From positions 1 through 64,000 of the IMG/VR virus record IMGVR_UViG_3300042691_038651: DNA of 64,000 nucleotides. One strand, given 5' to 3'. The stretch comes from a virus. Below are positions 3-47,462 of this stretch, piece by piece. The position numbers were made by a program, and so were the translations under genes. Under the pieces are notes generated by a model. That model saw only the letters and a program-made list of their open reading frames with translations, made no database searches and was not told the DNA's origin. Position 1 is the first letter of the stretch. Each line of letters starts with the position of its first letter.

Positions 3-1352
3 TTTACATTTGACTTAAAGAAAGATGCACTTGCAGTAGGAACTGACGATCCGTTCTACTACAAATACCAGTATGGTGGTGGTGCCAATTTCCGTAACTT
101 TAATGAATTCCGTCCTTGGTATCCTGGTACAGCCACGGTTGGTCCAAATGCTCTTAATTCAAACTATAGAGACAACCTTGGTGCTCTTGGTTGGAACGTT
201 AGTGATGGCTACCAAAACGTAGGTACTATCACTAGTGGAGATAGCATACAATATCCGGATGCTGGAACCGGCTATGGATATACACAACCAAAAGATGGGT
301 CTCCTTATAGTGTATGGAGCGAGACCAGCGGAATAGTTAACGCAAGTGTAACCAATTATGTTGCCCGTTATTGGAATGGAAGAATGAACGATTGGCATGC
401 CAGCCGTTGGTCGGTTTCAAATAGCGCAGCGGCATGGGGCTGGGGTAGCATTACTTCACAGGCTGTAGCAGGTGCTGGACTAAGAAATCCTGTTCATGAT
501 TATGATGCCAGAACACTTGCTCATACAGTAACACACGATCCTGCATTAGGAGCAAGAGAATGGCAAGACTGGGAACGACTTAGTCCAAACTTTACCGTTT
601 GGCCTACTCAAAATGCTTCTGGATACGGAGGCACTGGAGCATACAATAACATTTGGACACCTTGGGTTAATCAATATGCGTATAAACAATACTGGAAATG
701 GTTCTTACCAGTCATAGCTAAACCAAGTCTAGCTTTACCAGCAATGATGATGAACTTCTATGTAGAGCATCCACAAGTAATGGATGACGTAATCTATCGT
801 TCTTTTGGCGATGACGCATGGATAAGAAACTCTGGAATTCAGTGGAGAATAACACCAGTTGCAAACGGTTCTGGAGATAGAATACCACCAGATCCACTTT
901 CAGTAACTCAAACTGCAATTAACTATGGAGAAAATGTTACTTTTGCTGTGGAAGTTATGTTTGACAAACCTCTGTTTGTTAGTGGAAGAACACTTGCAAG
1001 ATGGAATTCAGGTAAATACAATATAGCAGCGTTCAATGGAAATACTAATATCGGCGGAAGAAACGCAGACGGTACTATCGATACATCAACAGGTTCCCCG
1101 ATCGATTCAACTGCTCACGTCAATACACAGAGCGAATTCTTGGGAGGTATAAACGATTTGCAGTGGGCTGCTCAGGCATCACTATTAGGTGGAACTGAGG
1201 TATATTCACCGCTCTCCGATATTACATTGCGAGGACAGTCGGTAATTAAATATCAAGAAACAAATTCGTATGAGTTGACATCTTACGGTATATCCCCTGA
1301 AGAAGGTGGAGGTGGCGGGCCTGCTGGAGGCGGCGGCGGTGAGCTTGGATAA
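3..1352 (+). CDS. C-terminal part of a large virion/tail-associated protein (5' truncated by window)
   Basis: The frame of ORF 384..1352 is open back to position 3 (FTFDLKKDAL...). It is G/N/T/W/Y-rich and ends in a Gly-rich tail. The function is inferred from composition only. Confidence 0.55.
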   Translation, partial: FTFDLKKDALAVGTDDPFYYKYQYGGGANFRNFNEFRPWYPGTATVGPNALNSNYRDNLGALGWNVSDGYQNVGTITSGDSIQYPDAGTGYGYTQPKDGSPYSVWSETSGIVNASVTNYVARYWNGRMNDWHASRWSVSNSAAAWGWGSITSQAVAGAGLRNPVHDYDARTLAHTVTHDPALGAREWQDWERLSPNFTVWPTQNASGYGGTGAYNNIWTPWVNQYAYKQYWKWFLPVIAKPSLALPAMMMNFYVEHPQVMDDVIYRSFGDDAWIRNSGIQWRITPVANGSGDRIPPDPLSVTQTAINYGENVTFAVEVMFDKPLFVSGRTLARWNSGKYNIAAFNGNTNIGGRNADGTIDTSTGSPIDSTAHVNTQSEFLGGINDLQWAAQASLLGGTEVYSPLSDITLRGQSVIKYQETNSYELTSYGISPEEGGGGGPAGGGGGELG

Positions 1353-1369
1353 CAAACAAAAACAATAGT

Positions 1370-1810
1370 ATGAAAAAAGAAACAAAAATAGTTCTACTCT
1401 CAGATCCACGAAACATCATCATACTGGTGCTACTTCTTGGAGTATTCATCTTTGCAGGAATTGTTTTCTTTGGTGGAGACTCTGCCTACAAAAAAGAGGT
1501 AAAGGCTCTACAGAAAGAGAACAAAATTCTACAGGCACAGCGTGATTCAATTGATCTGGTAATATCCGGGCTGGAAGCAGATTATGAAAAACTGCTTAAA
1601 AAAGAGGCGGCTCTACTTGCGGATATTGCAAAGAGAGACGCGGACATTGCAGCAGCAAAAGCCGCAGCAAGTCGCTCAAAGGCAGAACTGGATCGCTTAA
1701 AGAAAGATCTGGAAAAAACCAGAGAAGAGATCAAAAAGAACGAAGCAAATCCTGCAAATCGAACAGGGGATGATCTTCTAAATTCACTTAAACTCAAAAC
1801 CGGAAAATGA
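1370..1810 (+). CDS. membrane-anchored coiled-coil protein, i-spanin-like
   Basis: N-terminal TM helix (IIILVLLLGVFIFAGIVFF) followed by a long coiled coil; 4-nt overlap with the next gene. Confidence 0.5.
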   Translation: MKKETKIVLLSDPRNIIILVLLLGVFIFAGIVFFGGDSAYKKEVKALQKENKILQAQRDSIDLVISGLEADYEKLLKKEAALLADIAKRDADIAAAKAAASRSKAELDRLKKDLEKTREEIKKNEANPANRTGDDLLNSLKLKTGK

Positions 1811-2304
1811 AAAAACTCATAATACTTCTCATAATGTTTTTTGCGCTTGCCGCAAATGCACAGATTAGTTACCCTCGTTACGACCAAGACTCATTAGGAC
1901 AAAAAGTGGTAGTAATGACCGTGGAACAGGCCCAGGCATTAGACAACAGCACAGACCTACTTGCCTTGTTTAGAAAACTTGATGCTCAGCTTGTTGATTA
2001 TGATAGCGTTTGCATTAAGGTTATTGGTGATAAAGACAAAGTTATTGCTGAGCAGACTGTGCAAATAAATAAACTTAAAGAGACTCTCCAAGTAAAAAGC
2101 GATGAGATCGTAAACCTTCAAAAACGATTGGATGGAAACGAAAAGAAAATAATTAGTCTGGAGACTGAAATTGCAAATAAAAACAAGGAGATTGACCTAC
2201 ACTTAGGAGAGGTTGGAAGACTAAAGAGAAACATGTGGATTGGAGGTAGTCTTGGCGGTTTAAGTATAGTAGGTCTAATTATAGCCGTTATAGCAATCAA
2301 ATAA
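1807..2304 (+). CDS. exported coiled-coil protein with C-terminal TM, possible spanin partner
   Basis: Signal peptide MKKLIILLIMFFALAANA|Q, coiled coil, and hydrophobic C-terminus WIGGSLGGLSIVGLIIAVIAIK. Confidence 0.4.
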   Translation: MKKLIILLIMFFALAANAQISYPRYDQDSLGQKVVVMTVEQAQALDNSTDLLALFRKLDAQLVDYDSVCIKVIGDKDKVIAEQTVQINKLKETLQVKSDEIVNLQKRLDGNEKKIISLETEIANKNKEIDLHLGEVGRLKRNMWIGGSLGGLSIVGLIIAVIAIK

Positions 2305-12250: not shown

Positions 12251-12592
12251 ATGATGAAAAAGTTTAGCGAATGGATTGGTTCAGTAAGAGAAGCAGAAGA
12301 GAAAGAGCTTTCTCCTCTACAGAAATCTTACCGTGAATACTTTCAAGCAAAATTGTCAAAATTTGGAGTTGAGTCTCCTGCTGACCTCGACGACGAAAAG
12401 AAGAAAGAGTTCTTCAACGAAATCTCTGCTGATTGGGAAGCTGGAAAAGGCGTAAAACCTGCAGCAAAAGAAGAGATTGAGAAAGAGAAAGAAGAGGCTA
12501 AAGAGAAGGAGAAAGAAGAGCCTTCAAAAGATGTAGCAGACCTTGAGGGAAGCCCCGAGGACAAAATGGAAGACCTAACAAAAACCAAATAA
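12251..12592 (+). CDS. highly charged CTS-like protein, paralog A
   Basis: MKKFSEWIGSVRE|A; about 75 aa nearly identical to the next ORF; E/K-rich tail. Confidence 0.7.
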   Translation: MMKKFSEWIGSVREAEEKELSPLQKSYREYFQAKLSKFGVESPADLDDEKKKEFFNEISADWEAGKGVKPAAKEEIEKEKEEAKEKEKEEPSKDVADLEGSPEDKMEDLTKTK

Positions 12593-12595
12593 GAT

Positions 12596-13021
12596 ATGAA
12601 AAAATTTAGCGAATGGATTGGAACAGTCCGCGAAGCAGCCGAAGCAAAAAAATCTGAGCTTCAGAAGTCTTACCAAGACTATTTTCAAGCCAAGTTAGCA
12701 AAATACGGGGTAGAATCTCCTGCTGACCTTGATGAGGAGAAGAAAAAAGAATTCTTTAACGAGATCTCTGCTGACTGGGATGCTGGTAAAGGTGTTAAGC
12801 CTGCTGCCAAAGAAAAGGTGGAAAAAGAAAAGGAAGAAGCTGGAATTAAAGAAGGCGAAGTTCCTGCTGCAAAACCTGCTGAAGAGACTGCCGAGCTTCC
12901 AAAAGCTGATGAAACTCCGGAAAGTACTGAGGTAAAAGCTGCTGAACCTAAGAAAGAGGAAGAGCAGGGAACCGAGGTTAACAAGGAAGGTGACATCGAC
13001 ACAGAAAAAGAAGTAAAGTAA
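12596..13021 (+). CDS. highly charged CTS-like protein, paralog B
   Basis: MKKFSEWIGTVRE|A; tandem paralog of 12251..12592. Confidence 0.7.
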   Translation: MKKFSEWIGTVREAAEAKKSELQKSYQDYFQAKLAKYGVESPADLDEEKKKEFFNEISADWDAGKGVKPAAKEKVEKEKEEAGIKEGEVPAAKPAEETAELPKADETPESTEVKAAEPKKEEEQGTEVNKEGDIDTEKEVK

Positions 13022-13022
13022 G

Positions 13023-13268
13023 ATGAACTTTTCAGAATTTGAAAAAGGCATTAACGAAGCTCCTAACTATTCTCCTGAGAGACTAAAAGCACACTCCGAT
13101 AAAGCTGAAAAGCTTCGTCAGGCTGCTTTAGCCGCTTGTTCCAAAAACCAAAAGTTCTTGGATATGAAGAATCTGGGAGGCCAGCAACTAGACAATGCTG
13201 AAGAGGCATTTGAAGATCTGGAATCTGCAATGGAGGCCTACTTTGACCACTTAAAAACTGCACCTTAA
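13023..13268 (+). CDS. CTS-leader protein
   Basis: MNFSEFEKGINE|A. Confidence 0.6.
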   Translation: MNFSEFEKGINEAPNYSPERLKAHSDKAEKLRQAALAACSKNQKFLDMKNLGGQQLDNAEEAFEDLESAMEAYFDHLKTAP

Positions 13269-13269
13269 T

Positions 13270-13737
13270 ATGAAACACGCAAAAACATTTGAAGCTTTTA
13301 TTGCTGAAAAACTAACTGCAAAAAATCCTAATGAAGTTGTTACCATCGATGCTGATATGGCATATGATAACCCTATGGATGCTAAAGTAGTTTTTAATAA
13401 GTTCAAGCTTAAAGTAAAAGAGGTTAAAGGCGGTCAAGGCACTGAGCACGAGATCACTGGAACCAAGAAAGACATTCTTGCATATCTACAGAGCGAATTC
13501 TATGAAATGGAAGACGAGGATATTAAAGAGTTATATCCCGAGCTGCTTGAAGGAAATGAGCTTGACGAAGCAATGGTACAAATTGCCGGAAAGAGCAAGC
13601 CTTCTGGAGCTAAAGTACTTGCCATAGTTCTTGTTGACTATATGATTGAAAAGGACTATCTTAAACCAGGAATGGATAAGTCGAAGAAAAATCTGGTAGA
13701 TGATCTTCAACAATTCATTATGGATAACACTTTCTAA
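13270..13737 (+). CDS. CTS-leader two-module protein
   Basis: MKHAKTFEAFIAE; internal linker LLEGNELDE|A. Confidence 0.7.
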   Translation: MKHAKTFEAFIAEKLTAKNPNEVVTIDADMAYDNPMDAKVVFNKFKLKVKEVKGGQGTEHEITGTKKDILAYLQSEFYEMEDEDIKELYPELLEGNELDEAMVQIAGKSKPSGAKVLAIVLVDYMIEKDYLKPGMDKSKKNLVDDLQQFIMDNTF

Positions 13738-14861: not shown

Positions 14862-15458
14862 ATGAAGCATATAAAGACATTTGAGAGCTATGTTGTTAGC
14901 CTAAGTGAAGGACTAAACCCTTCCAAAATGAAAGAGCTGATTGCAGAGGTAGCTGAATTGTTAGCCGGACAACTAGCCGATGAAGGTATGGAATCTGATG
15001 AAGTGGAAAACTTTTTAGAGGAGTACCCAAATGCTGCAGAATCTACGCTGGAAGGCTTGGAGGATAAGTACGGAACTGACCTTGTCAACCTATGGCCCAA
15101 GATGAAAGCTGAGGTTATTAAAAAGGTACAAGAGATGCTAGATGAAAACGTTAATGAAGGCCGTTCAGACTTCCGCGAAATTGAAGGTAAAGACCTTGAA
15201 GACGTTTTGGATGCTGTTGCCTATTTGAATGGACAAGGACTTCCTGAAGTTGAAAAAGCTGTAAAAGGGAAAGCGCCTTACAAATTGATTGGCAGCAAAT
15301 CCGGATCTCCAAAAGGCGGCGGAATGCACATGTCATCAATTGATTTCCAAGAAAATCCAGGTGGCGTTAAAATGAGCGTTGGTGAATTCATCGATGTACT
15401 AAATACGGTATTGGATGACGCAGGCTACGACAAATTCAAAGTAAAAATCTTAAAGTAA
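14862..15458 (+). CDS. CTS-leader two-module protein
   Basis: MKHIKTFESYVVSLSE|G; internal LDENVNE|G. Confidence 0.7.
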   Translation: MKHIKTFESYVVSLSEGLNPSKMKELIAEVAELLAGQLADEGMESDEVENFLEEYPNAAESTLEGLEDKYGTDLVNLWPKMKAEVIKKVQEMLDENVNEGRSDFREIEGKDLEDVLDAVAYLNGQGLPEVEKAVKGKAPYKLIGSKSGSPKGGGMHMSSIDFQENPGGVKMSVGEFIDVLNTVLDDAGYDKFKVKILK

Positions 15459-17196: not shown

Positions 17197-17805
17197 ATGT
17201 GCTATACACGTGAACAGATTGAAAAGGCCGTGAAGGCAAAAGGTTACAAATGGTTTGAAGATGCCGCTAACAAAACCTATGATGTAAATATCGTAGGAGT
17301 TCGTAACAATACTCCTTCAGTTGCCGATAAGGTTACCAACGTATTTGATGATTGCCTGACAATCTCTTACAAAGACGAAACAGGTGCATGGCAGTTTTAC
17401 TGCTGGATGGGAACCTGCGATCCTGGTAAAAAAGGCGTAGAACAGTTCCACAATAGCAGAGGAGTTGCTCGACTTGTTCCTGGACAATACCGCGGAGTTT
17501 GGATGATTGATAAACACCAAGGAAAGTACGATGCTCTTTGCCAAAGAGGCGGTAATGTTACTGTGTATCGAGATGCTGACCGCAATGCAACATTCAATGA
17601 AAGCGTGACTGACACGGGAATGTTTGGTATAAACATTCACAAAGCTGGCCAAGATTCAACCTGGGTTGAAAATTGGAGCGAGGGCTGTCAAGTTTTCAAA
17701 AGAGTAAAAGATTTTGATGCTTTTATGTCAATCTGTCGCAAAGCTGCAAAGATTCACGGAAACAAATTTTCTTACACTCTAATAGAATCAACTGATATTG
17801 CATGA
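17197..17805 (+). CDS. putative peptidoglycan-acting enzyme/endolysin (YkuD L,D-transpeptidase-like motif)
   Basis: GINIHKAG...WSEGCQVF has the H-x-n-SxGC catalytic arrangement; no CTS leader. Confidence 0.55.
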   Translation: MCYTREQIEKAVKAKGYKWFEDAANKTYDVNIVGVRNNTPSVADKVTNVFDDCLTISYKDETGAWQFYCWMGTCDPGKKGVEQFHNSRGVARLVPGQYRGVWMIDKHQGKYDALCQRGGNVTVYRDADRNATFNESVTDTGMFGINIHKAGQDSTWVENWSEGCQVFKRVKDFDAFMSICRKAAKIHGNKFSYTLIESTDIA

Positions 17806-18380
17806 ACTACATAAAGACATTTGAAAGCTTCATTTTTGAAGCGGATGGAAAAAAAGTTGTTTTCTTTCCAGGTAGGTTTCAGCCGTTTCACAATGGCCAC
17901 CTAGCCGCTTTGAAGAGAACTTCAGAAGAGTTTGGCTTGCCGGTTATTCCACTGCAAATTGTTTCCAAAAATGAAGACTCACCGTTTCCCGATGCTCTTC
18001 TCAATAAAATGGCAAAAGATGTGGTAGCTGCAAATAGCTTTATCGCTGACTTTTTCATCTATCCAAAAGGAGAAAAGACCGTCATTCCTATGATGGTACA
18101 ATTTCTTCGCAAACAGGGATACGAACCAATGGGACTGGGCGCCGGCGCTGACCGCATGAAAGACTATCTTCGTCAGGTTGACTACATCACGGGTCCTAAA
18201 ACCGATACACCGGTTGATCCCAGCTTTACAGTAAAAATGGTAGATGCCCGTGAAGGCGATGGACCAAGTGGAACAAAAGTTCGTCAAGCCTTGAAGGACG
18301 ACGACCAGGCAGCATTCAACGCTTTAATGCCAAAAGAACTACATAAATACTATAAGGAACTCCAAAAATACATACGCTAA
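17802..18380 (+). CDS. HxGH nucleotidyltransferase (cytidylyl/NMN-adenylyltransferase-like) with CTS leader
   Basis: MNYIKTFESFIFE|A; GRFQPFHNGH; GADR; SGTKVR. Confidence 0.8.
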   Translation: MNYIKTFESFIFEADGKKVVFFPGRFQPFHNGHLAALKRTSEEFGLPVIPLQIVSKNEDSPFPDALLNKMAKDVVAANSFIADFFIYPKGEKTVIPMMVQFLRKQGYEPMGLGAGADRMKDYLRQVDYITGPKTDTPVDPSFTVKMVDAREGDGPSGTKVRQALKDDDQAAFNALMPKELHKYYKELQKYIR

Positions 18381-25401: not shown

Positions 25402-25755
25402 ATGAAACACATCAAACTCTTCGAAGAATATCGATACGAGACTCGTGATATGTCATATTGGACATCCCAAAAGTCAGAGGATGAATACTTAAAAGGCCGC
25501 TTTCCTTGGTTAGCTACTAGCATAACAAAAGAATCTGAGCTTTCTGCGTTCGTAACCAAATGTATTGAAAGATGGAATCGTGAAGGCGAAAAGAACGAAC
25601 AGGTTACCAAGAAAGCCGCTGATACTGTTCAGAAGATTGCGCTAAAATACTTTCAACAATTTAATACCATTGATGGCTTTATCATAAATGCAATGATTAG
25701 AGAATTGCCAAAAACTGGAATAAAACTAAAAGATCTTGCAAATGAAGTACGTTAA
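25402..25755 (+). CDS. CTS-leader protein, homologous to the last module of 43224..44009
   Basis: MKHIKLFEEYRYE; DMSYW...YFQQFNTIDGFIINAMI. Confidence 0.7.
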   Translation: MKHIKLFEEYRYETRDMSYWTSQKSEDEYLKGRFPWLATSITKESELSAFVTKCIERWNREGEKNEQVTKKAADTVQKIALKYFQQFNTIDGFIINAMIRELPKTGIKLKDLANEVR

Positions 25756-39023: not shown

Positions 39024-40853
39024 ATGAGTAACCGATTTGAATTAGAGCAACATTACATAGCTGCAAAAGAGGCGTACTACAGCGGAACACCTCTACTGTC
39101 TGACGACGAGTTTGACCGATTGGAAGCTGATCTGCTTTCTCTTGGATCTGACGTTCCGTATATCGTAGGATCTGACGACCGCAAGGCTAAGTATTCTCAT
39201 CCATCACCAATGCTTTCCCTGGCTAAATACCAGGCAACTATCGACGGAACGCCGCCGACTGAATCTGCCGTGGCGTGGATGAAGAAATTTGGTGCAACCT
39301 CTTTCGAATTTACTCCAAAGTATGATGGTAACGCCGCTAACGCAATCTACGTAGACGGTAAGCTTTCTCAGGTACTCACTCGCGGTAATGGAACTAAAGG
39401 CCGCGACATCACAGACAAGGTAAAACATAATCTGCCTGACACGGTAGGTTTCAATGGAACCGTGGAAGTCCGTGGCGAGGTAGTTATCAAAATTTCTACC
39501 TTCAATGCAAAATATGCCACTTTCAAGAATCCTCGTAACTATGTGGCAGGCGTCCTTAACAGGGACGAAAATCCTGCTGAGGTAATTGCTGACCTGGACT
39601 TCATCCCACTCGAGGTAAGACATCATAATGACGGAGAAATCATTTATATTGCTCCAAGAGTTCCAGGCTTCAAACACACTGCTCATATATTCTATGGTGG
39701 ACCAGAATCTTTCGAGGCTGCTTACCGTGATATGGTGGAATACCGTAAAACATCCGAGTATCAGTTGGATGGTTTTGTAATCAAGGCTCCCGAAGGTCTC
39801 CGACCACAATGGGGAGAAAATTCTCACGACCCTAACTGGGCAGTGGCAATTAAGTTTCCACCAAAGGAAGCAATCACTACTATCAAAAGTATCTCTTGGC
39901 AGTATGGCAAATCCGGGGCGGTAACTCCTGTGGCTGTCATGGAACCAGTAGATCTGGATGGATCTACAGTATCTCGAGCTGCACTATTCAATTACACATA
40001 TCTAAAGAATATCGGCGCGTACCCAGGTGCTCAGGTTATTATTGCAAAATCAGGAGATATCATTCCGCAAATCATATCGGTAATCAAAGCTGGCAACGAA
40101 AAGCATTTTGAACATCCAACACACTGCAAATGCGGATCTGAATTGGTTCAATCAGGCGTCCATCTGATGTGCGAAAATGAAAATTGCGAAATGGGAGAAT
40201 GGCACAAATTCTACCAAGGCGTGGCATGGTTGGATCTGGATGGCGTAGGTGGTTCAATGGTAAAACAGCTCTTTGCGGTAGGTTACCGTAGCGGTTTGGA
40301 ATTGCTCAATCCTACCAAGTTTAACAAGGAAATTCTCTTAAGCAAAGGTTTCAAGGACGGAAAGATCTTGGCAAATATGCTGGAACAGGTTTCCCGCATC
40401 ACCGAAATCACTCCACGCGAAATCTTAATGATTATGGCTTTCCGCAACATGGGTGGAACTACAGCCAAGCAGGTCGGTAACTTCCTATCAGGAATCGAAT
40501 ACAGCTTTCACGGCTTGGAAAAATCCGTAGTATCTGGATTCGGTCCAGGTGAACCAAAAAGAATTGCGTATGAAAATGCAATTGCAGAAATTGGTCAATA
40601 CATCAAAGTAGTTCTTCCTGAAGCAATCTCGGCAGAAAGCATCGGATACGAAATGACGGGTTCTCCAAAGGCTGCGGGGTTCAAAACCAAGCAGGAATTT
40701 GTGGAAGCTGCCAAGGCAAAAGGATATCACCACAGTGGAATAAAAGGCGCAAAAGTCTTATTCACAGATGATCTATCATCAACCAGTAGTAAAATGGCAG
40801 AAGCCCGTAAAAGAGGCATCCAGATATTACCTTATTCAATCATAACCGAGTAA
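39024..40853 (+). CDS. ligA: NAD-dependent DNA ligase
   Basis: HPSPMLSL, PKYDG, TRGNG..G.DIT, EVRGE, NPRN, DGFVIK, AIKFP, SGDIIP, Zn finger, BRCT-like tail. Confidence 0.93.
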   Translation: MSNRFELEQHYIAAKEAYYSGTPLLSDDEFDRLEADLLSLGSDVPYIVGSDDRKAKYSHPSPMLSLAKYQATIDGTPPTESAVAWMKKFGATSFEFTPKYDGNAANAIYVDGKLSQVLTRGNGTKGRDITDKVKHNLPDTVGFNGTVEVRGEVVIKISTFNAKYATFKNPRNYVAGVLNRDENPAEVIADLDFIPLEVRHHNDGEIIYIAPRVPGFKHTAHIFYGGPESFEAAYRDMVEYRKTSEYQLDGFVIKAPEGLRPQWGENSHDPNWAVAIKFPPKEAITTIKSISWQYGKSGAVTPVAVMEPVDLDGSTVSRAALFNYTYLKNIGAYPGAQVIIAKSGDIIPQIISVIKAGNEKHFEHPTHCKCGSELVQSGVHLMCENENCEMGEWHKFYQGVAWLDLDGVGGSMVKQLFAVGYRSGLELLNPTKFNKEILLSKGFKDGKILANMLEQVSRITEITPREILMIMAFRNMGGTTAKQVGNFLSGIEYSFHGLEKSVVSGFGPGEPKRIAYENAIAEIGQYIKVVLPEAISAESIGYEMTGSPKAAGFKTKQEFVEAAKAKGYHHSGIKGAKVLFTDDLSSTSSKMAEARKRGIQILPYSIITE

Positions 40854-42805: not shown

Positions 42806-43222
42806 ATGAAGCACACAAAAACATTTAGTCAATTCATCGACGAAAAGAAAGACGAAAAGTACATTGCACATGTCAACGACGGTAGAGAGCCGGGCGGTTC
42901 TGACAAAGACATCAAAAAAGACTACAATCTCGATGTAGAGAACAGAGACAACGACGGTTTTGATATCGTTGGTTCAAAAGAAGATGTACAGGCTTTTATC
43001 GATGACTACGGCATCATTTTAGATGATGAAATTGCATTGGTCGAAAGCGCAGGATACATTGAGGTTATGGATCTTACACGAGTAGCAAACGCTTTAGGAG
43101 AAGTTCAAAGAGTATGGACTGAGTGGAAATCTGGTCCTGCAACCGAGCCAAGCGATATTAAACCAGCACAGAAAGATCTGAAAGGATGGATCGACCGTTG
43201 GTTCAAAGATAACATTAAGTAA
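42806..43222 (+). CDS. CTS-leader two-module protein
   Basis: MKHTKTFSQFIDE; internal LVE|S. Confidence 0.68.
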   Translation: MKHTKTFSQFIDEKKDEKYIAHVNDGREPGGSDKDIKKDYNLDVENRDNDGFDIVGSKEDVQAFIDDYGIILDDEIALVESAGYIEVMDLTRVANALGEVQRVWTEWKSGPATEPSDIKPAQKDLKGWIDRWFKDNIK

Positions 43223-43223
43223 T

Positions 43224-44009
43224 ATGAAGCACATAAGCACATTTGAAAATTTCCTGAATGAGGGTAATGCCTCAATGTACAAGAGCACGGTTCAAAATGC
43301 TCTTAAACTTTTAGGGTATGACTTAAAGCAGTCTGAACTTAAGGTTGGCGTTAAGAAAGAAAAGTTATATGACTTGATTACGCTTAACGGAGAACTTCTT
43401 TGTTCTTCTTCTGACTATGCTCAAATGGTAACCTGGATTCAAAACGCGGTAAAAGAAGATCCTGCAAAATATGGTCTGGATCCAAGAGTATTAGAATCGG
43501 AAGACGTGAATGAAGGCGACATGACAAAAGACTATGACGGCTTCATTGTAATTGACTACAAAACAAAGAAGAACTACAAGTTTAGATACATCAAGGGGAC
43601 TAACAACGTTAAAGTTGAAGACGAGGCAATTGCAAAACTTATGAAAGACACAAGACAGCCTCGAGCAACCTTTGCAGTAAACGGGTTGGTTAGAAAAGGT
43701 GAGTGGGATAAGTCTGACGCTCAAGTACTTGAATCAGCAAATGAGGCAAAGGACATGTCATACTGGAAACAATACGCTGAAGGCCATCATTCATCACCAA
43801 AGTGGTACAACGAAGAAGTAAAGAACGCGTCAGAAATTGCTGACCTCGTTGACGAGGTTATTAAGAATGACCAGGCTGAAGCGGAAATTCCTTTTGAGAT
43901 TGATGCAAAAGACGAGAAGGCTCTCGTTAAAATGGCAACCGATTATTTCAATCAATTCAAAACTATCAACGGCAACGTCATCAGCGCGATGATATTCCAA
44001 GGAGCATAA
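43224..44009 (+). CDS. CTS-leader three-module protein
   Basis: MKHISTFENFLNE|G; linkers VLESEDVNE|G and VLESANE|A. Confidence 0.72.
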   Translation: MKHISTFENFLNEGNASMYKSTVQNALKLLGYDLKQSELKVGVKKEKLYDLITLNGELLCSSSDYAQMVTWIQNAVKEDPAKYGLDPRVLESEDVNEGDMTKDYDGFIVIDYKTKKNYKFRYIKGTNNVKVEDEAIAKLMKDTRQPRATFAVNGLVRKGEWDKSDAQVLESANEAKDMSYWKQYAEGHHSSPKWYNEEVKNASEIADLVDEVIKNDQAEAEIPFEIDAKDEKALVKMATDYFNQFKTINGNVISAMIFQGA

Positions 44010-44026
44010 AAACAAAACACACATAA

Positions 44027-44386
44027 ATGGAAAAGGAACTACTCAATAACGTCCTACAGATCCAGTCGCAATTAAAGGTGCTTCACTGGCAGACAGAGAG
44101 CTACGCTGAACACAATGCGTTTGGCATGACTTACGATACATTAGATGACCTGTTCGACCAAATCATTGAAGTATACAGCGGTAAATACGGCCGTCCTAAA
44201 TTTGACGGCATGAAGAACATTGCTCTTGCTGATTATGAAAACATCAAGGTAGATGCGTTCATCGACGGTGCATTAAACTTCTTTGAAAATGCTTTCATGG
44301 CAGAGAGCGACAGCGAACTTGGAAACATCTGCGACGAGATCAAAGCTGCTCTTGACAAGCTGAAGTATTTGCTGACTCTAAAATAA
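44027..44386 (+). CDS. Dps/ferritin-like four-helix protein (DUF5856-like)
   Basis: LHWQTESYAEH...YD.LDDLFD.IIE...GKYGRP...KYLLTL. Confidence 0.75.
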   Translation: MEKELLNNVLQIQSQLKVLHWQTESYAEHNAFGMTYDTLDDLFDQIIEVYSGKYGRPKFDGMKNIALADYENIKVDAFIDGALNFFENAFMAESDSELGNICDEIKAALDKLKYLLTLK

Positions 44387-46489: not shown

Positions 46490-46864
46490 ATGAGAATCAT
46501 CAAAGCAACAGAAAACGCTTCAGGCAATCTTACCGACGCACAGCTCAAGTTTATGCGTGAGCTAAACACAAACCCTACATTCAACCGCAAAGAAAAGCCT
46601 TGGACGCTAGTCAAGATTCCAAAGTCAACTACTCGAAACGTTGCATGGCACATTCGCTTAGGCAATGAAAACTTCCACGCGCTGCAAATGTACTCTCACG
46701 GAGAGTTTGTAAAGATTTACAGAGCAGACGAAAAAGGAAAGCCGATGGGTTGGAGTCATTTAGTAAAAGAATATCTAAGCTATGTGGATCTGGAAGCGGC
46801 TGTTGACAGATTCTACGAAGAATACTCAAAAACACAAACAAATGAAGAGACTAAATCAATCTAG
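46490..46864 (+). CDS. hypothetical protein
   Basis: ORF track; abuts neighbouring genes. Confidence 0.55.
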   Translation: MRIIKATENASGNLTDAQLKFMRELNTNPTFNRKEKPWTLVKIPKSTTRNVAWHIRLGNENFHALQMYSHGEFVKIYRADEKGKPMGWSHLVKEYLSYVDLEAAVDRFYEEYSKTQTNEETKSI

Positions 46865-47462
46865 AGAAGACCTGGAAAACAAGAAAGACAACGAAGAGTT
46901 TTCTGACACCAGCCTCATCTCCGTGCATGGAGATCACATCTACTTTTACGCCCCGGTAAACCAGGAATCTGCACTGATTCTTAATCAAAAACTGCATCAG
47001 GTATCGATGCAAAGCCTGGGTGGCATTTTCAATAGCATGTACGAGGTAAACCCACCACCACCAATCTGGCTACACATCAATTCCTATGGCGGAGAGGTGT
47101 TTGCTGCTTTTGCAATTGCTGACACTATCGAACGTATCAAGACAACCGTTCCAATCGTTACAGTCGTGGAAGGCTGTGCTGCTTCTGCTGCAACCATCAT
47201 TTCTACGGCGGGAACAAGACGCCTCATGCGAAAGAATTCATATATGCTCATACACGAGCTTAGTGATATGGCATGGGGAAAACAGTCGGAGTTGGAGGAC
47301 CACATACAGAGCAATAAGGACATCATGAAGACCATGAAAGACTGGTATGCGCAGCGCACCAAGATCAAACCCGAAGATCTTGAAGAAATCTTAAAGCGCG
47401 ACCGTTGGTGGAACTCAAAACTGTGTAAGACCAAATATGGTCTAGTTGATGACATCATCTAA
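46842..47462 (+). CDS. ClpP-like serine protease
   Basis: LHINSYGGEV, GCAASAAT (Ser), MLIHE (His), RDRWW...YGLVD. Confidence 0.88.
   Translation: MKRLNQSREDLENKKDNEEFSDTSLISVHGDHIYFYAPVNQESALILNQKLHQVSMQSLGGIFNSMYEVNPPPPIWLHINSYGGEVFAAFAIADTIERIKTTVPIVTVVEGCAASAATIISTAGTRRLMRKNSYMLIHELSDMAWGKQSELEDHIQSNKDIMKTMKDWYAQRTKIKPEDLEEILKRDRWWNSKLCKTKYGLVDDII

Follow-up and report, generated by a model that had tools for sequence, protein, structure and literature searches.

Can a phage send several small proteins into its head under one address and have them cut apart there? The question is raised by the open reading frame (ORF) 43224..44009 in a stretch of 64,000 nucleotides of viral DNA, hereafter the window, which comprises the first 64 kb of an IMG/VR viral contig of 100,842 bp (IMGVR_UViG_3300042691_038651; guanine-cytosine content 41%). 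A first-pass annotation, made from the letters of the window, had described this ORF as a cargo polyprotein whose blocks are joined by protease-site linkers. The contig is ~35% complete (CheckV), its genes lie almost all on the + strand, and the topoisomerase II large subunit encoded in the window is ~30% identical to its counterparts in T4-like Vibrio and Morganella phages; the source is an uncultured freshwater T4-like jumbo phage. From sequence comparison and structure prediction, we consider that 43224..44009 probably encodes a three-module, capsid-targeted cargo polyprotein that would be cut apart by the head protease, and we put the probability of this reading at roughly 0.6.

A leader, three modules and two linkers

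The ORF encodes 261 residues (29.7 kDa) on the + strand, namely a 13-residue leader resembling the capsid-targeting sequence (CTS) of phage T4, followed by three modules (M1, M2 and M3) of ~75-87 residues. Its parts and the one related gene of the contig are given below, with a slash at each proposed cut.

43224..43262, + strand: leader MKHISTFENFLNE (residues 1-13), CTS-like, ending in L-N-E and followed by G
43263..43496, + strand: M1 (residues 14-91), 8.7 kDa, predicted alpha-beta-beta-beta-alpha
43488..43514, + strand: linker 1, VLE/SEDVNE/G (residues 89-97), with two aliphatic-x-Glu sites six residues apart
43515..43733, + strand: M2 (residues 98-170), 8.5 kDa, isoelectric point 9.2, GDMTxxYDGF..., predicted beta-beta-alpha-beta
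43725..43745, + strand: linker 2, VLE/SANE/A (residues 168-174), first site a canonical V-L-E, second site with Ala at P3
43746..44009, + strand: M3 with the stop codon (residues 175-261), 9.9 kDa, predicted helical
25402..25755, + strand: stand-alone M3 paralogue, leader MKHIKLFEEYRYE/T followed by an M3 body (found by BLASTP and by the M3 profile)

The three blocks of ~80 residues that had been described as parted by VLESEDVNE and VLESANE agree exactly with these ORF coordinates and linker positions. Linker 1 fits the consensus of the wider set of junctions treated below, E-S-x-[VIL]-N-E/[GA]. No peptidase domain was found in the ORF.

The last block had also been equated with the body of the stand-alone gene 25402..25755, and this is borne out. 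M3 and that body are 32% identical over 90 residues (BLASTP, E 4e-12), and a hidden Markov model (HMM) of M3 matches the stand-alone protein at E 1.3e-19. The alignment opens at the last Glu of the paralogue's leader (E/AKDMSYW against E/TRDMSYW), so that E174/A175 of the polyprotein corresponds to the end of a leader in the paralogue. Beyond the leader, this gene is the sole similarity of the ORF to any other gene of the contig in an all-against-all BLAST of the contig proteins.

Exchange of modules among relatives

In a full HMMER scan of 1.84 billion representative proteins, 125 hits were obtained, of which 78 had E <= 1e-10. The hits are cluster representatives with a pairwise identity of at most 50%, and their matches form three separate blocks on the query. 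HMMs of M1 (residues 14-92), M2 (residues 99-170) and M3 (residues 175-261) were mapped back on these hits. The order M1-M2-M3 is kept in P0001, which is 60% identical to the query, and other proteins have the architectures M1-M3 (P0002), M2-M3 (P0009) and X-M2-M3 (P0005). M1 stands alone behind a leader in P0010 and is internal in P0029, P0092 and P0112. M2 is the most widespread module and directly follows the leader in P0006, P0008 and P0065, while M3 is found alone behind a leader in P0004, P0069, P0072 and P0078 and at the C-terminus of many fusions. Further, M1 or M2 is buried in proteins of 400-880 residues (P0012, P0021, P0043, P0046, P0048), and M2 lies deep inside such proteins in, for example, P0012, P0021, P0043 and P0046. 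One fusion of 587 residues that ends in M3 (L007, 4501..6264) is encoded on a 165-kb viral contig, between a helicase gene and a leader-tagged ligase-like gene. In these relatives, module sequences have drifted to 40-60% identity with those of the query.

The 90%-identity cluster of P0001 contains members of 255 residues with leader-M1-M2-M3 and members of 176 residues with leader-M2-M3, and the break between the two forms lies exactly at ...FLNE/ and ES.NE/G. By this alignment, a module has recently been gained or lost at the joint. Searching for homologues module by module, as the first-pass annotation had recommended, recovered each module fused to differing partners, the breakpoints falling at the linkers; as far as such comparisons can tell, the modules are independent, shuffled units. 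As in viral polyproteins, several independently folding units that also occur as separate genes share one ORF. An internal translation start at the conserved Met of M2 (DMT) was considered and is unlikely, as the short hits beginning there resemble fragments of truncated contigs.

Structure prediction gave independent small domains with low-confidence linkers, as had been expected. AlphaFold2 with a 44-row alignment reached a mean predicted local distance difference test (pLDDT) of 88.8 and a predicted template modelling score of 0.50. Three domains have pLDDT >90 (M1 90-95, M3 91-98), and the confidence dips only at the two joints, to 63 in residue block 91-100 and to 66 in block 171-180. The model is confident only with the alignment, the single-sequence pLDDT being 33. 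According to this model, the modules fold as independent small domains.

The earlier labelling of the modules as effectors is unsupported, since none of them matches Pfam, PHROGs or a solved fold above noise. Searches of Pfam and PHROGs with all modules and the neighbouring leader proteins found no family (PilJ_C, FRD3, HRDC and others stayed below the cut-offs), Foldseek against PDB and BFVD returned no hit with E <= 0.001, and the best Z of a wide VIA-align search, 5.6, falls within the tool's stated noise range. Weak resemblances of M1 to the topology of the double-stranded RNA-binding domain, and of M2 to ribosomal LX and AcrIC9, were not adopted.

A shared leader and a recurring joint

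The leader type was detected by pattern search on 22 + strand genes of the contig, in 21 of them in a canonical 13-residue form. In canonical leaders, positions 7 and 10 are F or Y, position 11 is L, I or V (20/21) and position 13 is E (21/21); position 12 is most often N, and position 14 most often G, A or S. The copies show synonymous codon variation, with five different Leu codons, and selection on the leader peptide is argued for on this ground. The T4 internal protein (IP) and Alt class is marked by a short N-terminal propeptide of 10-19 residues with targeting residues and an L/I-x-E end, and MKHISTFENFLNE/G has all of these features.

Internal junctions were defined as the residues upstream of internal copies of three unrelated modules, anchored on the junction Glu, and 55 were collected. 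An aliphatic-x-Glu site is present at 48 of the 55, mostly in the form E-S-x-[VIL]-N-E/[GA]. Position by position, 47 have V, L or I at P3, 39 have N at P2, 45 have A or G at P1', 32 have E at P6 and 27 have S at P5, and in 31 two aliphatic-x-Glu sites stand a few residues apart. Examples, written with the slash at the module, are NESVVNEG/DMT, RESFINEG/DMT and ESANEGN/DLSYW. Aligned with the leader T-F-E-S-F-L-N-E-G, the joint corresponds to the leader without its aromatic N-terminal part, and the aromatic targeting positions of the leader are not retained at joints.

In long relatives, the motif [LIVMF][NTKS]E[GAS] recurs every 60-90 residues, with spacers of 4-6 residues. P0046 has 14 matches in 855 residues and about ten modules; cuts at these matches would yield fragments of 20, 76, 5, 73, 44, 5, 64, 4, 72, 74, 5, 73, 62, 152 and 126 residues. 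Taken together, the hits of >= 150 residues contain 255 motifs compared with 31.4 +/- 5.2 in shuffled sequences, an enrichment of ~8-fold.

Two further observations concern the leader. A second, longer type, MKKSELRxLIREQVxxxIKE/A, belongs to another group of metagenomic T4-like phages (P0032, P0035, P0036, P0046, P0050 and P0053; also L010 and L011 of genome G003), where it heads the same kind of polyproteins, some of them with M2. In the window, 17802..18380 (+ strand) encodes a cytidylyltransferase-like enzyme (HxGH motif; Pfam CTP_transf_like, E 2.5e-7) that bears the canonical type of leader and has an ortholog in the related genome G001, and enzymes may accordingly be packaged besides small modules.

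Head protease and capsid of related phages

The related genome G001 (142,917 bp) has the same leaders, and its leader genes are ~80% identical by eye. Its ORF 37..1932 of locus L002 (- strand) encodes a protein of 631 residues in which an N-terminal T4 gp21-type protease domain of ~190 residues (Pfam S77, E 7e-12; S80, E 3e-6) is fused to a scaffold-like region. This gene adjoins that of a gp23-like capsid protein; the closest database relatives of this capsid protein come from Lak megaphages and an uncultured 462-kb phage (40-43% identity). The scaffold-like region consists of ~nine tandem repeats of G-I-x-Y-A-E-[HY]-[ILV]-A-E-[KRHNG], which fit the aromatic/aliphatic/Glu pattern of the leader and also that of the T4 CTS, MKTYQEFIAE. 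The resemblance of each repeat to a CTS with its cut site suggests that the leader mimics the scaffold's own repeat.

The capsid protein of G001 starts with MNGKLINE/AQVLE/TW... and has ...AHYHSLNE/GFTYPQ at about residue 45. Placed against the maturation site of T4 gp23, FLTE/A, the latter is the predicted maturation site, where T4 gp23 is cut. Two other relatives keep L-x-E at this place: G002 has LLNE/A and KLYE/D at corresponding places, and G003, with the leader MKKSELR...LIKE/A, has ...QLVTE/A at the T4-equivalent maturation place. T4 gp21 cuts after Glu in L/I-x-E (PMC9026906), and this rule fits the leaders, joints, scaffold repeats and predicted capsid maturation sites of the clade.

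Other leader-tagged genes of the contig

Similar Glu-ended linkers had been listed earlier for other genes of the window. Because this list could not stand on counts, the genes were checked one by one via homologues with different fusion partners.

13270..13737, + strand: two-module leader protein, A-ELLE/GNELDE/A-B, with A and B each found with other partners
14862..15458, + strand: two-module leader protein with junction DENVNE/G, matching P0003
23835..24548, + strand: multi-module leader protein with first junction VME/SSMTKLSE/G, matching P0006
24851..25384, + strand: leader protein with a second site, MLNE/G, just past the leader; its body is a fused module elsewhere
42806..43222, + strand: adjacent leader gene with module E, ALVE/S and a different C-terminal part, matching P0116

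The linkers LDE/A of 13270, VNE/G of 14862, LSE/G of 23835 and LVE/S of 42806 each proved to lie at the border of a module that has different partners in homologues. Module A of 13270 occurs in P0091, where M1 follows, and in P0051, where M2 is ahead of it; module B ends P0034, P0064 and P0003, in each of which ...NE/A or ...DE/A precedes it, compared with L-D-E/A at the junction of 13270. Similarly, the C-terminal module of 14862 corresponds to residues 93-205 of P0003, where it stands after M1 and before module B, the junctions being VNE/G and INE/G. The module after LSE/G in 23835 aligns with the module that follows VLE/NNVFESLLEE/G in P0006. Residues 1-85 of 42806 match residues 1-88 of P0116, in which M3 then follows after ELSE/G, and the two junctions read LVE/S and LSE/G. 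For 24851, residues 19-176 match residues 97-257 of P0027, where they come after M1, and also the C-terminus of the 670-residue P0012. The idea that 42806 ends in a degenerate M3 is unsupported (M3 HMM, E 0.09).

The first modules of 13270 and 42806 had been described as akin. BLASTP found no match between them, whereas a comparison of profiles built on only three and two sequences, respectively, gave a probability of 78% and E 1.8e-5 over 41 columns. A relationship between the two is thus plausible but weak.

Gene setting

43224..44009 lies between two topoisomerase II subunit genes, together with 42806, a DUF5856 gene and 44739. The DUF5856 gene (44027..44386, + strand; phrog_858, 'starvation-inducible transcriptional regulator', Dps-like) has no leader and is surrounded by the cargo genes that lie between those for the topoisomerase subunits. 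Immediately upstream of the topoisomerase II large subunit, 39024..40853 (+ strand) encodes an NAD-dependent DNA ligase with adenylation and OB domains, unlike T4, whose ligase is ATP-dependent. Downstream of the polyprotein ORF, at a distance of 2.8 kb and among replication genes, 46782..47459 (+ strand) encodes a ClpP-family protease (Pfam PF00574 CLP_protease, E 5e-28; weak NfeD1b_N), which is a possible alternative processing enzyme. Elsewhere in the window, the tandem genes 12251..12592 and 12596..13021 (+ strand) encode proteins that are 83% identical over their first 69 residues and then divergent, which to judge by the alignment again shows a common N-terminal part joined to differing C-terminal parts.

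No Shine-Dalgarno sequence precedes any leader gene in the window (e.g. 13267-13269, 43221-43223). The preceding stop codon lies 1-3 nt ahead of the ATG, and the surroundings are A-rich. The lack of Shine-Dalgarno sequences and a capsid protein nearest to those of Lak (Prevotella) megaphages hint at a Bacteroidota host.

Weighing the explanations

We propose that the aromatic N-terminal half of the leader would dock the precursor on the prohead core, and that its C-terminal half, L-N-E/G, would be the site for a T4-type (S77) prohead protease. The two linkers would repeat just this processing half. After assembly, the protease would remove the leader and cut both joints inside the capsid, giving products of 8.7, 8.5 and 9.9 kDa as well as short acidic spacer peptides of 4-6 residues, and the released proteins would be injected together with the DNA. 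In-frame joining or deletion at a leader or linker motif would give rise to new combinations. The suggestion of the first-pass annotation that one tag serves several products freed by the head protease is thereby upheld in part: the fusion contexts, the predicted folding, the recurrence of the leader's processing half in the linkers, their fit to the T4-type protease rule and the capsid motif speak for it, while packaging, cleavage and the protease responsible are what we infer from them. In its wider form, the proposal is that uncultured T4-like jumbo phages have turned T4 capsid targeting into a plug-in cargo system. One address would serve up to ten or more interchangeable modules of 8-10 kDa, with the targeting half used once and the processing half used as a universal joint; the head protease would unpack the injected kit, and recombination at the joints would make new kits. 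The odds on this wider form seem to us even.

Several observations weigh against the cargo-polyprotein reading. Neither a prohead protease nor a gp23-type capsid gene was found on the ~35%-complete contig, and for this reason the protease argument rests on relatives. The polyprotein gene lies away from late genes, amid the topoisomerase II subunit genes, and the T4-type late promoter TATAAATA is absent near 43224..44009. In the leader proteins of the contig itself, the motif is unenriched compared with shuffles (strict form, 3 against 2.3 expected; loose form, 10 against 9.4), so that its significance depends on the enrichment in relatives and on the coincidence of motifs with homology-defined module borders, not on counts in the window. 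The second site of linker 2, A-N-E/A, has Ala at P3, as do just 3 of the 55 junctions. Covariation of leader P2 and joint P2 across proteins is suggestive (odds ratio 5.25) and not significant, with p 0.057 on non-independent data. Searches of the locus at DNA and protein level gave no match to cultured phages, and no cultured phage with these modules was found. The linker could also be, in part, an inherited relic of fused leaders and not a selected site.

Taken to its full extent, this last point becomes the rival that survives best, which we consider unlikely. It holds that the product is an uncleaved multi-domain protein, one working chain whether packaged or not, in which the leader half ESF[LI]NE was left as a flexible hinge after deletions joining neighbouring leader-tagged genes. 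The contig contains many copies of the leader DNA, and these would be a substrate for such fusing deletions, many linkers (ESFINE, ESFLNE or ESYINE) are the second half of the leader, and the unenriched motif in this genome's own proteins would be expected. A relic under no selection would be expected to decay, yet P3, P2, P1 and P1' are retained in ~71-87% of the 55 junctions despite the divergence of the modules, and it is the processing positions that are kept and the aromatic targeting positions that are lost. In addition, proteins with the other leader (MKKSELR...IKE/A) still have ES-x-[VIL]-x-E/[GA] linkers, and orthologous linkers that differ by indels always retain one or more aliphatic-x-Glu sites.

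Cutting of the polyprotein by another protease, for example a host enzyme or the ClpP-like one that the phage itself encodes (46782..47459), acting in the cytoplasm or following injection, has in our estimate a low probability. ClpP-type enzymes degrade processively and not at defined linkers, which counts against the candidate encoded 2.8 kb downstream. The nearness of the ClpP-family gene, the position of the cargo genes among replication genes, not head genes, and the failure to find an S77 protease on the contig would suit such a route; against this, T4 gp21 is known to cut after Glu where P3 is aliphatic (PMC9026906), and the joint rule matches the predicted capsid maturation site and the scaffold repeats of the relatives.

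It is just as improbable that the leader is no capsid address at all, serving instead as a translation-start enhancer in a host without Shine-Dalgarno sequences or as a tag for another compartment or partner, with the modules as ordinary cytoplasmic early proteins: leader genes do lie among early or middle genes with A-rich first codons and no Shine-Dalgarno sequence, and enzymes such as the cytidylyltransferase-like protein carry leaders too, but the synonymous codon variation shows selection on the peptide, its second half recurs at internal junctions where translation initiation cannot be affected, and it parallels the T4 CTS and the scaffold repeat of the relatives.

If 43224..44009 does encode a cargo polyprotein, several small proteins would be loaded per docking event and in fixed ratios. 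Cargo would be swappable at a universal joint, which would help explain the diversity of first-strike counter-defence in large phages. The T4 internal proteins are the textbook case of injection with phage DNA, and one of them, IPI, blocks a host restriction enzyme. The leader and the joints E-S-x-[VIL]-N-E/[GA] would together provide a sequence rule by which metagenomes could be searched for candidate injected proteins. The system would also offer natural design rules for packaging several cargoes in T4-type delivery vectors, and a protease-substrate pair that can be tested directly.

Comparison with known systems

The first-pass annotation had called a polyprotein strategy unusual for dsDNA phages, and the literature searched agrees, as no description of such polyproteins was found in it. 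Multiple cuts in one head protein are known from T4, where the scaffold and core proteins gp22, gp67 and gp68 are cut by gp21 at many L/I-x-E sites (PMC9026906). Their fragments are mostly discarded, making room for DNA, whereas the pieces considered here are conserved, predicted folded domains that are also found as stand-alone tagged genes.

Polyvalent proteins are multi-domain proteins proposed to be packaged and delivered with the DNA, possibly with proteolytic release (Iyer, Burroughs, Anand, de Souza and Aravind, 2017, PMC5512222). They have 2-15 domains per polypeptide, a range that includes the three modules of the present ORF and the ~ten of its relatives. They also carry recognisable conflict domains (ART, ParB-like, primase) and embedded zincin-like peptidases, and are often fused to MuF or portal proteins. 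In contrast, the present polyprotein has neither recognisable conflict domains nor an embedded peptidase or MuF/portal fusion, and has instead a uniform short linker that fits the rule of the prohead protease, and a CTS-like leader.

The ejection or inner-body proteins of the giant phages phiKZ, 201phi2-1 and SPN3US are cut after Glu by an S80 protease (PMC10052503, PMC5694885). They share with the present system a short Glu motif, a gp21-related protease and multiple cuts per protein. In SPN3US, the cuts fall within long N-terminal propeptides that are discarded, leaving one mature product (PMC10052503; phiKZ homologues are reported to be similarly processed), and no strings of shuffled, independently folding modules with repeated linkers have been described for these phages.

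The closest known system is that of IPI, IPII and IPIII, the internal proteins of T4, and of Alt, with a CTS that undergoes processing by gp21, the prohead protease (Mullaney and Black, 1996; PMC9026906). Dissection of the T4 CTS assigned targeting to residues 4 and 7 and processing to residues 8 and 10 (PMC9026906), a split that is paralleled by the proposed division between leader and joint. In T4, processing is inhibited when the processing position of the CTS is an Asp (PMC9026906). Sequence similarity to the T4 internal proteins was not found; the likeness lies in a short propeptide with aromatic targeting residues and an aliphatic-x-Glu end, in the use of one tag on unrelated small proteins, in predicted products of 8-10 kDa compared with ~8 and 10 kDa for IPI and IPII (PMC9026906), and in relatives that have an S77 protease and a gp23-like capsid. 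Each T4 internal protein is a single protein cleaved once. In the present system, several modules share one tag, with its processing half repeated internally, the modules number up to ~ten in relatives, and the tagged genes are more numerous, 22 on 100 kb.

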